A DNA stretch of 9,806 nucleotides from Escherichia coli (GTDB lineage: Bacteria > Pseudomonadota > Gammaproteobacteria > Enterobacterales > Enterobacteriaceae): NCBI RefSeq assembly GCF_003334355.1, contig NZ_QOWP01000058.1; one strand, given 5' to 3'. Positions 40-4,848 of the stretch are shown here, in pieces. Below the pieces are notes generated by a model. The model saw nothing but the letters and a program-made list of their open reading frames with translations, searched no databases and was not told the DNA's origin. Position numbers and translations under genes: made by a program. Every line of letters begins with the position of its first letter. The first letter of the stretch is position 1.

Positions 40-1044
40 TTAATGATTTTTACCAAAATCATTAGGGGATTCATCAGGGCTGGGTTTGTTTTTATCAGCC
101 ACCAGTAGCAAGGTGCGGATGACTTGCGGATGGTTAATTTGTACCAGCAGACTGCCGCAATCTTCTTTATGGGCATACATCGCGAGGCGCGGAATGGCTG
201 CCAGTCCTTGTTCGCGCAAAAGGGCGGCGCAGGCCGCGTAGCCGAAGTGGTTTTCATGCGACATGTAGCTGGCTTCTCGATCGCTAAATATATCCTGGCT
301 CCAGTAGTGTTCGAGTTTTCTCACCGCTGTGGGGTCATTAGCAACAACTTTTAACCACTCCTTAGAATGAAAATGAGTTCGCGGGCATTCAAGGCCTACC
401 AACTCATTGGCTATTTCTGGTTTTTCCGGGAGGATCAGCGCAATAAAAGGGCGGCGAACTTTGGTTATTCCTGGTAGTGCGGCAATGAGTTTGTCGGCGC
501 AACGCTGCCAGCAGCTTTCCTCTGCCAGAGAGAGATGCTTACGCAGTCGGAGATCGAATTCGTTATAGGTTTCTGAGCGATAACCATAGCCATAATCCTC
601 GTCCTGATACTGCAATGTCACTACCAGAGGATCACTCTCATAACACCGCGCAATAAACTGGCGTGCAATCACCACCTCAGTCGCATATTCCAGCCCCTCT
701 TGTTGGACGATTTCGTCGAGCAACTGTTGGCTGTCATTTTGCGCGATACAGGCTAGCGCCGCCATTGTCTGGGCCGGGACTGAGGGTTTGTGTTCGCCGA
801 TCAAGTTGATGGCCTGCGTGATGGCGGACTGCCACTCCAGTGAAAAATTTTCATAACGCCAGACAATGTTTTTTTTCTTCTCAGCTTTTTGTAGCAATTC
901 ATCACCCAGTGTCTGAATGATGCTTTCAGTGATAACAGACACCGGTTCGCCCGGCCAATTGCGATGGCTGAGTGGCGTTTTGCCTTTTTTATATTTCAGT
1001 TCCAGTTGGGCGTTATCCGCCAGCCACGGTAATTCCTTGTCCAT
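40..1044 (-). CDS. yehI: MolR-paralogous protein without a WGR domain; probable 5-prime part of yehI (ORF closes after 334 codons, 39 bp from the window edge)
   Basis: ATG at 1044-1042, TAA at 42-40. Translation aligns along its whole length with residues ~117-450 of the adjacent 1264-aa protein (shared blocks LPWLA, LSHR.FPG.PV, SLEWQ, QEG.LEYAT, F.LRLRKHLSL.EES.WQ.CA.KLIAA.P, LPEKPEIA.E, EWLK.VA.D, INHP); roughly 40 percent identity by eye. Start lies 9 nt after the upstream stop with an AAGGAAAG Shine-Dalgarno. Symbol assigned from synteny (metG-molR-yehI) rather than from recognising the sequence. Confidence 0.6.
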   Translation of the reverse strand: MDKELPWLADNAQLELKYKKGKTPLSHRNWPGEPVSVITESIIQTLGDELLQKAEKKKNIVWRYENFSLEWQSAITQAINLIGEHKPSVPAQTMAALACIAQNDSQQLLDEIVQQEGLEYATEVVIARQFIARCYESDPLVVTLQYQDEDYGYGYRSETYNEFDLRLRKHLSLAEESCWQRCADKLIAALPGITKVRRPFIALILPEKPEIANELVGLECPRTHFHSKEWLKVVANDPTAVRKLEHYWSQDIFSDREASYMSHENHFGYAACAALLREQGLAAIPRLAMYAHKEDCGSLLVQINHPQVIRTLLLVADKNKPSPDESPNDFGKNH

Positions 1045-1056
1045 GCTCTTTCCTTA
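1045..1056 (-). promoter_or_regulatory. Ribosome-binding site / translational-coupling junction between molR stop and the downstream paralog start
   Basis: Minus-strand reading: TAA (molR stop, 1056-1054) GGAAAGAGC ATG (1044-1042). The AAGGAAAG motif spans the stop codon and sits about 5-6 nt upstream of the ATG. Confidence 0.5.
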
Positions 1057-4000: not shown

Positions 4001-4848
4001 AGTGATAAATGTTTACGTAGGCGTAATTCAAATCTGGAATATTGCTCCAAGTAGCTAGGTGCAATGCCAGACGGCAGAATAATAATGACATTATTCGCAT
4101 AATCCCATTCAATATCAATCTGTTGAAGGTGTATTATTACATCAGTAGCATATTCCAGACCGCCTTCCTGGACGATCTGATCCATAACATCCTCACGCAC
4201 TTTATATCTTGTGCATTTCATTTCAAGTGCCGTGAGTACAGCCATTACTGGTGATGGTAACTGTGTTGTTTTCAGGCCGTCGATCTGACTGATCGCCTGG
4301 GCGACGGTGTTTTGCCATTCTAAAGAACAGGCGCTGAAGTCAAATGTGGCTGTTTTATTATCCCGTTGCGACACACTACAGGCTAAGCGACGTAATTGGG
4401 GCAATTTGTCTGCTTGCTGAACAGGAACTCCGGGAAAGCGGCGATGACTTAACGTGGTGTGTACAACTTCGGGCGGAAAAACGACAGCAATATCTTTCGC
4501 CAGCCACGGTAAAACAGCATCTGTATTTTTGTCAGGCGCACGGGTTTCTGCTACGAAAGAGGGTTGTTCCTGAATAATGGTGGATAAGTCCGCTACCTTG
4601 AGAGAGCCCGTTACCGTTTGGGAAGGTTGCAAAGAATTATCCTTCGCTTGCTCCACATACCCCTTCTTCACCTTCTCCGCAATCAGCTTAAGCTCCGCTT
4701 TTGCCGCTGCCGCAGCATCTGAAAAACTTTTTATCTGGCTTTGCCCTTTGGTGCCAACTTTTCCCCAACTGATATGCAACTCGTTTCCCTGTTGCTCAAC
4801 TGCCCTGAATTTATGTGATTTTTCGTCCTGATAGATAAAGTGTCTCAT
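1054..4848 (-). CDS. molR: Large WGR-domain protein with helical repeat region and C-terminal DUF4132-type region (putative molybdate metabolism regulator MolR), 1264 aa, intact
   Basis: Uninterrupted 1265-codon ORF. N-terminus MRHFIYQDEKSHKFRAVEQQGNELHISWGKVGTKGQ...KGYV has the pattern of a WGR domain. Length equals the 1264 aa I recall for E. coli MolR, and it lies immediately downstream of metG as in E. coli. AGGGA Shine-Dalgarno about 6 nt upstream of the ATG at 4848-4846. Confidence 0.85.
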   Translation of the reverse strand: MRHFIYQDEKSHKFRAVEQQGNELHISWGKVGTKGQSQIKSFSDAAAAAKAELKLIAEKVKKGYVEQAKDNSLQPSQTVTGSLKVADLSTIIQEQPSFVAETRAPDKNTDAVLPWLAKDIAVVFPPEVVHTTLSHRRFPGVPVQQADKLPQLRRLACSVSQRDNKTATFDFSACSLEWQNTVAQAISQIDGLKTTQLPSPVMAVLTALEMKCTRYKVREDVMDQIVQEGGLEYATDVIIHLQQIDIEWDYANNVIIILPSGIAPSYLEQYSRFELRLRKHLSLTEESLWQKCAQKLIAAIPHIPEWRQPLIALLLPEKPEIAHEIAQRLLGQKKLPSLEWLKIVATDEHILASLEKYHEPYAIFDDYYCGAIWSATVLQEQGVAALPRFAPYAASDYCADVLRHINHPFALTLLIRVAGQTKRCHDRMTKAIAAFPHAAMAALTELLGQKEENSWRIMLMTMLISQPALAEQVIPWLSTPAVAVLKSCQEQLTQPSNHASADLLPAVVVSPPRLSKKKKSPIPVLDLAPLGIEPICYLTEEISNQLLAKYIWYSKHITVSHEESTTNLLARMGFQRRIAGTYIKAPEAVVEAWLNEDYSTLLSEFKVFHSPTGHYWQLGILTTLPLEKAVKAWNALTLSPHTDTEYAMLHFGLKGLPGLVNSLARYPQEALPITNYFAASELAPAVARAFNKLKTLRENARSWLLKYPEHALTGLLPAALGKAGEAQDNARAALRMLTENGHQPLLQEIARRYNQPEVTDAVNALLALDPLDNHPTKIPTLPAFYQPSLWTRPVLKANAQSLPDSALLHLGEMLRFPQEEALYPGLLQVKDVCSADSLAGFAWDLFTAWQTAGAPSKESWAFTALGVLGNDDTARKLTPLIRAWPGESQHKRATVGLDILAAIGSDIALMQLNGIAQKLKFKALQERAKEKIADIAESRELTVAELEDRLAPDLSLDDNGSLLLDFGPRQFTVSFDETLKPFVRDVSGSRLKDLPKPNKSDDESRADEAVNRYKLLKKDARTVAAQQVARLESAMCLRRRWSPENFQLFLVEHPLVRHLTRRLIWGVYSAENQLLACFRVAEDNSYSTADDDLFTMPEGDISIGIPHVLEISPTDAAAFGQLFADYELLPPFRQLDRNSYALTEAERNASELTRWAGRKCPSGRVMGLANKGWIKGTPQDGGWIGWMIKPLGRWSLIMEIDEGFAVGMSPAELSAEQLLSKLWLWEGKAESYGWGSNSTQEAQFSVLDAITASELINDIEALFE

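Follow-up and report, generated by a model that had tools for sequence, protein, structure and literature searches.

The locus that begins with molR in Escherichia coli raises the question of what a 1264-residue protein with a legacy molybdate name does beside a paralog, YehI, and a MoxR-type ATPase. The annotation of molR and yehI, the Pfam families WGR and DUF4132, the YehL subfamily of MoxR ATPases and the listing of molR as an SOS gene were already known. The DNA analysed here, a stretch of 9,806 nucleotides from E. coli that we call the window, holds the start of a cluster ordered molR-yehI-(yehK)-yehLMPQ in this species. Our tentative answer, with a probability of about 0.4, is that MolR is a DNA-damage-linked scaffold that would feed a MoxR-vWA remodelling engine.

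The molR-yehI pair and the insertion in yehI

The features of the window are the following:

1-77, minus strand: terminal 77 bp of an IS10/ISVsa5-type (IS4 family) element, whose transposase gene is expected past the left edge of the window
40-1044, minus strand: truncated yehI, 334-aa product; native codons 1-322 occupy 78-1044
1045-1053, minus strand: molR-yehI spacer of 9 nt, ggaaagagc; an AAGGA Shine-Dalgarno sequence overlaps the TAA stop of molR
1054-4848, minus strand: molR (legacy names yehF/G/H), intact ORF of 1264 aa
1057-2751, minus strand: C-terminal half of MolR (residues 700-1264), conserved, with helical repeats and the alpha/beta DUF4132 region
1330-1887, minus strand: DUF4132 Pfam match in MolR, inside the conserved C-terminal half
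2779-3261, minus strand: hypervariable cassette (about residues 530-690) in an otherwise conserved gene
4642-4833, minus strand: WGR domain of MolR (residues 6-69), with the motif W28-G29-K30
4858-4873, no strand assigned: LexA (SOS) box, which reads CTGGATAAAATTACAG on the strand of molR and precedes the molR ATG by 10-25 nt
4956-4979, minus strand: metG intrinsic terminator, made of a T run behind a stem of 9 bp, 6 of which are G-C

The molR ORF has the length of 1264 aa given by the first-pass annotation, and the metG terminator is the upstream limit of its transcription unit. An Rfam scan of the window detected no RNA family. A Pfam scan of MolR residues 1-1200 returned the two families that had been proposed, WGR (PF05406, residues 6-69, E=1.6e-15) and DUF4132 (PF13569, residues 988-1173, E=4.3e-51), and nothing else, while an NCBIfam scan of the whole protein returned the WGR part only. 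The MolR of the window was identical to that of strain ATCC 8739 in all 50-residue bins except one (98%). From its N-terminus the protein consists of a PARP-type WGR domain, a disordered linker of about 40 residues, a predicted alpha-solenoid with a variable N-terminal half, and a conserved half ending in DUF4132. The WGR fold matched those of PARP1 bound to a DNA break and of the PARP3 WGR domain. The conserved C-terminal half was modelled with a pLDDT of 95 and a pTM of 0.88, and all of the 26 columns that are invariant among 40 homologues fell within residues 703-1254, the acidic E1254 being one of them. Among solved structures the DUF4132 region found no recognisable fold relative, with matches to generic helical repeats only, and it yielded no catalytic or binding motif. 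The scaffold family comprises 5897 clusters at 50% identity (2606 at E<=1e-30), and the word-indexed MolR homologues, almost all of them from E. coli, contained no new domain fusions.

The junction between both genes reads TAA-ggaaagagc-ATG, in agreement with the 9-nt gap and the Shine-Dalgarno sequence over the molR stop described previously. The same 9 nt were found in two other Escherichia species, E. whittamii has the one-base variant ggaaagaac, and Klebsiella has a 14-nt version; tandem paralogs in other loci lie mostly 4-37 nt apart. The co-transcription and coupled translation proposed earlier for molR and yehI are presumed.

The ORF that follows molR had been taken as a whole gene, but its similarity to yehI ends at window position 78, and its last 12 codons and stop (40-77) are contributed by the IS element. 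Positions 1-77 match what we take to be the outside end of IS10-Right. Bases 1-85 gave 6329 matches across chromosomes and plasmids, and in DH5alpha and STK78-E the same end adjoins a gene annotated as 'IS4-like element ISVsa5 family transposase', so that this terminal sequence is common to copies with an encoded transposase and places the element in the IS4 family, ISVsa5 group. The IS-yehI junction of the window was absent from every complete E. coli genome in the collection. Judged from its sequence, yehI is a pseudogene in this strain, interrupted by an IS10/ISVsa5 insertion after codon 322.

This interruption changes how the relationship between both proteins is to be read. Intact YehI, as encoded in ATCC 8739, has 1210 aa with DUF4132 at about residues 954-1138 (E=5.1e-46, Pfam), and aligns with MolR at 37% identity across 1185 residues; the 334-aa ORF aligns through its residues 2-320 with MolR 110-422 at 38% identity (326 aa, E=2e-56). 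The paralogy claimed for the two ORFs is thus borne out, whereas the discrete central module of about 330 aa that they were said to share is an artefact, because the insertion left only that much of yehI. The 334-aa ORF shows no DUF4132, and NCBIfam finds nothing in it, because its native part stops about 630 residues before the domain. The WGR domain, on the other hand, is confined to the molR product as had been stated, since Pfam gave no WGR match in intact YehI.

Partner genes, allelic variation and distribution

The genes yehK to yehQ lie outside the window and were confirmed in ATCC 8739, where the pair is followed, as the first-pass annotation had stated for K-12, by genes for a MoxR ATPase, a vWA protein and others. 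Of 74 loci in other species, 50 have homologues of MolR adjoining those of YehL, YehM, YehP and YehQ, and the loci with an incomplete partner set are mostly cut by contig ends or are extra Massilia copies. An unrelated contig carries, in order, the Pfam labels WGR/DUF4132, AAA_5, DUF5682 and VWA_CoxE, and the same five-gene set was found in Streptomyces and, with permuted order, in Agrobacterium, so that the module spans Proteobacteria, Actinomycetota and Alphaproteobacteria. The paralogs therefore do co-occur with MoxR/vWA genes, and the adjacency of all four partners in these loci strongly supports the suggestion that the whole block is one multi-component system. The partner genes L, M, P and Q mostly overlap by 4 nt.

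Each partner could be assigned some identity. YehL, after which a MoxR subfamily is named (PMC3893208), matched AAA_5 at 5e-35, with midasin AAA domains as its best PDB sequence matches (E=4e-10). YehM is a DUF5682 protein, YehP matched VWA_CoxE at 9e-72 and carries a DQSGS MIDAS motif with the residues D222, S224 and S226, and YehQ has two CxC...CxH SWIM motifs; sequence searches with YehM, YehQ and YehP found no solved relatives. From this gene neighbourhood we infer a molecular contact of MolR with YehP or YehL.

The scaffold proteins vary in number and in sequence. One to eight scaffold paralogs accompany each partner set, with eight in Massilia tandem arrays, and WGR-less copies are nearly always found beside a WGR-bearing one. 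Within molR, the cassette is only 33-64% identical to that of the other common E. coli allele, while most other bins are at least 92% identical. The cassette version of the window occurs in 3383 of the 5426 E. coli genomes (5320 for the molR 3' part), and the alternative version shares 92% identity with its E. whittamii ortholog; N-terminal parts of MolR and the cassette have been swapped between alleles and species. Gene conversion from yehI was rejected as the source of the cassette, the alternative allele being no closer to YehI (15-21% identity).

The locus is near-universal in E. coli, occupying a fixed site next to metG in 5320 of 5426 genomes (about 98%), and full-length molR ORFs of 1262-1264 aa predominate in a sample of tens of thousands of E. 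coli sequences. Nevertheless, it is often inactivated without obvious cost, as in the strain of the window, in STK78-E (both molR and yehI disrupted), in 184 ST131 isolates in which the region carries a transposon (PMC9334617) and in K-12, whose molR has been noted as disrupted. The delta-molR1/delta-lepA synthetic growth defect was set aside as functional evidence: the K-12 molR is a pseudogene directly downstream of metG, and polarity or an effect of the neighbourhood is no less likely an explanation.

The LexA box and the possible link to DNA damage

It had been argued that MolR has no HTH and that nothing in the sequence explains its name. The first part stands, as neither Pfam (residues 1-1200) nor NCBIfam (whole protein) detected an HTH or other sequence-specific DNA-binding domain; what had been overlooked is the LexA box that covers the 5' leader of molR. 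This box is the sole AT-rich CTG-N10-CAG in the 9.8-kb window, with 9 A/T among the 10 spacer bases, against a background, taken from 1.56 Mb of related loci, of 0.018 such sites per kb. Two other Escherichia species conserve the box at -26, and a published list of LexA-regulated genes places molR under 'Known SOS box' (PMC6590174).

A parallel comes from Deinococcus radiodurans, in which DRA0166 (DUF4132) and DR2173 (WGR) have DdrO (RDRM) sites and respond to mitomycin C with an induction that depends on IrrE (PMC8533742). The same two Pfam families are therefore damage-induced there, similarly to the LexA control of molR, although in D. radiodurans they are found on separate proteins and the regulator differs from LexA. 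Upstream of the cluster in the other loci (about 70), a search for four LexA motif types found no SOS-type motif, and conservation of the SOS box beyond Escherichia was rejected. Because the LexA box is confined to Escherichia, the damage link is supported by just two lineages and may be a coincidence.

Candidate mechanism, competing explanations and significance

According to the reading that we favour, MolR-type proteins would be damage-induced scaffolds or adaptors. The WGR domain, a putative binder, may anchor the scaffold at a nucleic-acid feature, for instance a DNA end or nick. The choice of target or partner would fall to the variable N-terminal half and the cassette, and the conserved C-terminal half would dock onto the vWA/MoxR engine, which might then spend ATP on remodelling or removing a protein-nucleic-acid complex. 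Paralogs that lack a WGR domain, like YehI, may work with the WGR-bearing copy or as alternatives to it. We propose this division of labour because the invariant residues all lie in 703-1254 while the N-terminal parts and the cassette are swapped, and the link to nucleic acids and damage because of the PARP-like WGR fold, the LexA box, the SOS listing and the Deinococcus DdrO regulon.

The possible template is midasin (Rea1), which acts in eukaryotic ribosome assembly and likewise combines AAA_5 modules with a MIDAS domain. The MIDAS domain of midasin takes hold of a factor by an acidic residue, and ATP hydrolysis then draws that factor off the nucleoprotein particle; in this way the AAA ring and the MIDAS domain together clear factors from pre-ribosomes. 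By analogy, the YehL-type engine may act in a comparable way. However, midasin is a single giant polypeptide with six fused AAA modules, whereas the YehL-type module consists of separate proteins, and homology between them is limited to the AAA module. A bolder and rather improbable extension is that WGR-DUF4132 proteins and YehL/M/P/Q form a 'split midasin', a new class of bacterial nucleic-acid surveillance machine. Its diversifying, interchangeable sensor scaffolds, up to eight per engine, would recognise DNA ends or foreign nucleic-acid-protein complexes and pass them to the MoxR-vWA motor for ATP-driven removal, and the machine would have been recruited independently to the SOS regulon in Escherichia and to the DdrO/IrrE regulon in Deinococcus.

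Comparison with known systems shows which components are distinctive. The pairs RavA-ViaA, CoxD-CoxE, NorQ-NorD and CbbQ-CbbO likewise join an AAA_5/MoxR ATPase to a vWA protein, here of the CoxE type, with a MIDAS motif and encoded in one operon. In contrast, the characterised pairs are devoid of WGR-solenoid-DUF4132 scaffolds (one to eight copies here), of a DUF5682 protein and of a double-SWIM protein, which are three extra obligatory partners of the YehL-type module. The WGR domain of MolR belongs to the same Pfam family and fold as those of PARP1/2/3 and shares their Trp-Gly-basic motif, but the basic residue is Lys instead of Arg, and MolR has no PARP catalytic, zinc-finger or BRCT domain. 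The WGR domain of PARPs binds DNA ends or nicks, and the same activity is putative for the bacterial domain. PDB 2ra8 (Bacteroides fragilis Q64V53) and the LIC_11051-type WGR proteins have a different, much shorter body with no DUF4132.

Other explanations were weighed against the damage-linked scaffold. A conflict or defence role, already offered as speculation by the first-pass annotation, would make the paralogous scaffolds diversifying sensors of phage or mobile-element molecules, with the MoxR-vWA engine thresholding or activating the response and SOS induction coupling the system to prophage induction or infection-linked DNA damage. The dimorphic hypervariable cassette common to several species, the mosaic N-terminal halves of the alleles, the Massilia arrays with up to eight paralogs per engine and the frequent loss through IS or transposon all fit such a role, as does the type I toxin-antitoxin pair that in many E. 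coli separates yehI from yehL (PMC2887945). MoxR-vWA couples reportedly figure in the predicted conflict systems of Kaur and colleagues from 2020. On the contrary, none of the seven proteins (MolR, YehI, YehK, YehL, YehM, YehP and YehQ) matched PADLOC-DB at E<=0.01, and copies were found in 0 of 50,697 phage genomes and in 32 of 72,556 plasmid records, mostly megaplasmids or mislabelled chromosomes. Furthermore, the fixed site next to metG is unlike that of typical accessory defence islands, and no component has a recognisable effector domain (nuclease, protease, NADase or pore). These data speak against defence, which we regard as unlikely. The possibility that the genes encode a MoxR-vWA maturation chaperone, acting in complex assembly or cofactor insertion with MolR and YehI as substrate adaptors, seems slimmer still; a connection with molybdoenzymes would vindicate the old gene name, which associates molR with molybdate use, although the genetically defined molR mutation was, we presume with some uncertainty, mapped elsewhere than the present locus. 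The CoxE-type family of YehP and the MoxR family of YehL are compatible with it, as characterised MoxR systems are maturation factors (PMC3893208). Nevertheless, no conserved candidate client enzyme lies beside the module, whose flanks differ in each lineage examined; WGR, SWIM and SOS/RDR regulation indicate nucleic acids and not metal centres, and the molybdenum genes of D. radiodurans do not co-vary with those for DUF4132 and WGR.

It could also be argued that the molR-yehI part is a decaying relic, useless in most E. coli, with the junction and the SOS box as leftovers. The disruptions of yehI in the window, of both genes in STK78-E, of the region in a successful ST131 sublineage and of molR in K-12 would be expected from such decay, but full-length ORFs predominate in the species, and intact ORFs this long are not retained without selection. 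The C-terminal half, moreover, is conserved across phyla, with its invariant residues and 2606 clusters, and is modelled with very high confidence; we consider a relic very improbable. The least credible reading is the one implied by the database name 'MolR family transcriptional regulator', a transcription factor for molybdate metabolism. The legacy name is all that favours it, and against it MolR is a predicted 1264-aa solenoid in which the profile scans detected no HTH or other such domain, and its conserved neighbours encode an ATPase and a vWA protein, with mod and moa genes not among them; this function is hardly conceivable.

The value of the damage-linked scaffold proposal lies in a well-defined 'known unknown', a five-protein module that ranges from E. 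coli to Streptomyces and is tied to DNA-damage regulons in two distant bacteria. It also indicates that K-12, with its disrupted molR, and strains like that of the window, with an IS in yehI, are the wrong backgrounds for tests, whereas ATCC 8739-type strains are intact. Should the scaffold indeed link the recognition of nucleic acids to a MoxR-vWA motor, this would be the first function for the YehL subfamily and, equally, for DUF4132, DUF5682 and bacterial WGR domains.

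Gene organization of the window and truncation of yehI

The features of the window are listed below; the molR and yehI ORFs come from a six-frame ORF listing, and gene names were compared with the RefSeq annotation of the intact-cluster strain E. coli ATCC 8739.

1-77: end of an IS10/ISVsa5-type insertion sequence, cutting yehI after codon 322
40-1044, minus strand: truncated yehI (334-aa ORF)
1054-4848, minus strand: molR (1264-aa ORF)
2779-3261: dimorphic hypervariable cassette, MolR residues ~530-690
4858-4873: LexA (SOS) box CTGGATAAAATTACAG (gene strand), 10-25 nt upstream of the molR ATG
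4956-4979: strong intrinsic terminator of metG
4989-7031, minus strand: metG, upstream of molR
Beyond metG, plus strand: apbC, then yehE and yehD

Since the strong terminator at 4956-4979 ends metG, molR begins its own transcription unit. The MolR-like protein of ATCC 8739 matches the MolR of the window in all 50-residue bins but one (98%). Beyond metG, the G+C content is 0.36-0.39 at 8501-9500 (yehE and the start of yehD) against ~0.45-0.55 in the rest of the window, which is consistent with horizontal acquisition of these fimbrial genes. The apbC gene (7124-8263) gives 379 aa as a mechanical ORF from the first ATG and 369 aa in the RefSeq annotation of ATCC 8739, a gap that is a mere choice of start codon.

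A Pfam scan of MolR residues 1-1200 yielded two domains, WGR at 6-69 (E=1.6e-15) and DUF4132 at 988-1173 (E=4.3e-51), and no HTH or other match; the WGR part was also the sole NCBIfam match. The first-pass annotation had called these domains correctly, as it had the lack of an HTH, the restriction of WGR to molR (none is present in intact YehI), the paralogy of the two ORFs (38% identity over 326 residues, E=2e-56 in BLASTP) and the spacer of exactly 9 nt (TAA-ggaaagagc-ATG), with the Shine-Dalgarno AAGGA overlapping the molR stop codon. Its proposal that the two share a central module of some 330 aa has to be revised, because intact YehI (1210 aa) aligns to MolR from residue 110 to residue 1204 (37% identity), so that the module is a remnant left by the insertion sequence. 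A DUF4132 domain is present in intact YehI too (E=5e-46). MolR and YehI are full-length paralogs, set apart by the WGR domain and linker. When 40 homologues were aligned, all 26 invariant columns fell within MolR residues 703-1254; the C-terminal half of MolR is its conserved working end, and variation lies in the N-terminal half.

A megablast search against 5426 complete E. coli genomes placed the end of yehI similarity at window position 78. Bases 1-85 matched 6329 places on chromosomes and plasmids, and in the two records inspected the match adjoined an 'IS4-like element ISVsa5 family transposase'; we take the window-end sequence to be the outside end of IS10-Right. Because yehI similarity stops at 78 and the window ends in insertion-sequence DNA, the 334-aa ORF is a composite of yehI codons 1-322 with 12 codons and a stop contributed by the insertion sequence, and what had been read as a second gene in its own right is an artefact of truncation. 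None of the 5426 genomes contained the yehI-IS junction; the insertion is therefore specific to the source strain, where it probably also splits molR from the downstream yeh genes.

A conserved module with multiple and variable putative scaffolds

Five genes come after the pair in ATCC 8739: yehK, yehL, yehM, yehP and yehQ. YehL matched AAA_5 (5e-35), with midasin AAA modules as its best PDB sequence matches, and one of the seven MoxR subfamilies is named after it (PMC3893208). YehM matched DUF5682 (1e-96), YehP matched VWA_CoxE (9e-72) and carries the MIDAS motif DQSGS, and YehQ contains two CxC...CxH SWIM motifs with a weak Pfam match. An exhaustive profile-free search for MolR relatives returned 5897 clusters at 50% identity, 2606 of them at E<=1e-30. 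Taking one genome per species gave 74 loci, mostly from beta-, gamma- and delta-proteobacteria, which were annotated by phmmer with the E. coli proteins as queries. YehL, YehM, YehP and YehQ (L-M-P-Q) were all directly adjacent on the same strand in 50/74 loci and partly present in seven, mostly cut by contig ends. None was present in 17, of which eight were contig-end cuts or filled with paralog arrays and nine were extra solo scaffold (MolR/YehI-type) copies, all from Massilia. A metagenomic contig whose Pfam labels were precomputed showed the same gene order; a Streptomyces linear plasmid showed the order DUF4132, AAA, DUF5682, VWA and a 714-aa protein, and an Agrobacterium chromid held the same five genes permuted. 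Most partner genes overlap by 4 nt, and gaps of 4-37 nt separate most scaffold paralogs. Given this adjacency, the Streptomyces and Agrobacterium sets and the tight spacing, the earlier suggestion of one multi-component system is well supported, and the system reaches beyond E. coli. At locus L006 (6883-12213), a 1776-aa homologue fuses a histidine-kinase-type HATPase_c to WGR and DUF4132; it adjoins a response regulator, and an AAA_5 gene then follows.

The scaffold gene has been duplicated in tandem repeatedly, and 19/74 loci contain at least two copies. In E. whittamii, Klebsiella and two other Escherichia species there are three, namely two WGR-bearing copies and then a WGR-less copy of YehI type; the additional, upstream WGR-DUF4132 paralog (loci L007, L008, L009, L010 and L013) is absent from E. 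coli. WGR-less copies nearly always adjoin a WGR-bearing one. Joining overlapping loci revealed eight consecutive paralogs over ~29 kb in Massilia aquatica (L052+L027) and similar arrays of about eight ~1200-aa paralogs in M. frigida (L067+L058) and M. mucilaginosa (L079+L050), some copies being split or truncated; in M. aquatica and M. frigida the array lies upstream of a single L-M-P-Q set.

Judged by its alleles, MolR is a mosaic within E. coli. In most 50-residue bins the other common allele is 92% identical or more, but across residues 501-700 the figure falls to 64/33/40/64%. The window-type cassette was present in 3383/5426 genomes, and the 3' part of molR in 5320/5426. Since the alternative cassette shares 92% identity with its counterpart in the E. 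whittamii ortholog, the polymorphism predates the species or passed between them; balancing selection or introgression may be the cause. E. fergusonii carries a third version, and in other alleles and species it is the N-terminal 100-520 residues that are swapped instead. Allele comparison ruled out yehI as a source copied into the cassette.

DNA-damage regulation of molR

The LexA box upstream of molR, CTG-N10-CAG with nine of ten spacer positions A/T, is the sole such site in the window, and a review of the SOS system places molR among the LexA-regulated genes whose SOS box is known (PMC6590174), a link missed in the first-pass annotation. In two other Escherichia species the same box precedes the first paralog, at -26 (background 0.018 per kb); in E. 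whittamii (L007) and one Escherichia species (L013) it precedes the extra first scaffold copy. It was not found at K. oxytoca L010, and loci L008 and L009 begin within the first scaffold gene. In Deinococcus radiodurans, DRA0166 (DUF4132) and DR2173 (WGR) have DdrO operator motifs, and mitomycin C raises the levels of both proteins, an increase that depends on IrrE (PMC8533742). A search for four kinds of LexA-type motif found none upstream of the module outside Escherichia, so the damage link is seen in two lineages and is not universal. In addition, the molR promoter is activated by BglJ-RcsB, without H-NS repression (PMC3950696).

Possible functions of the MolR module

A conflict or defence system, raised speculatively before, would fit the hypervariable cassette, the paralog arrays and the frequent loss of the locus. 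On the other hand, none of seven proteins had a PADLOC match, no phage copy and few plasmid copies were found, the proteins lack an effector domain, and the locus is fixed in place and near-universal in E. coli; such a role is unsupported and we consider it unlikely. The locus is repeatedly broken: besides the insertion in the window, STK78-E carries an independent ISVsa5 insertion in yehI and IS1 in molR, 184 ST131 isolates have a resistance transposon in the 'DUF4132 region' (PMC9334617), and K-12 molR is disrupted. Any function is therefore conditional, and K-12 and strains like the source strain are poor experimental backgrounds; that the locus is a decaying relic in E. coli is very improbable. 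Synthetic slow growth of delta-molR1/delta-lepA has been published (PMC4245954). The delta-molR1 deletion concerns a K-12 pseudogene fragment directly downstream of metG (methionyl-tRNA synthetase), and the phenotype seems equally attributable to an effect on the adjacent metG or to MolR function. The legacy 'molybdate regulator' role is scarcely credible, and a classical maturation chaperone serving some enzyme has a slim chance of being correct.

Starting from what was observed, namely the domain content, the conserved set of five genes, a C-terminal half that is conserved beside an N-terminal half that varies, and the SOS box, we tentatively favour (probability about 0.4) a damage-induced scaffold acting with a vWA/MoxR remodelling engine and tethered to nucleic acid through WGR. 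MolR-type proteins would be the damage-induced scaffolds, with WGR, by analogy with PARP, tethering them to a nucleic-acid feature. The variable half would select the target and the conserved half would dock on the engine, whose role would be the ATP-driven remodelling or removal of a protein-nucleic-acid complex. E1254, an invariant acidic residue in the C-terminal helix, is speculatively a candidate MIDAS ligand. Midasin, which uses an AAA_5 ring and a MIDAS domain to pull assembly factors away from pre-ribosomes, would by analogy be the nearest mechanistic template for the YehL/YehP engine.

Altogether, the earlier observation is confirmed in part and its interpretation partly supported, all of its statements being already present in databases and literature. 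The function of MolR and its module is a genuine question, and the damage-regulon link, the variable-sensor/conserved-dock architecture and the arrays of many scaffolds with one engine make that function directly testable.
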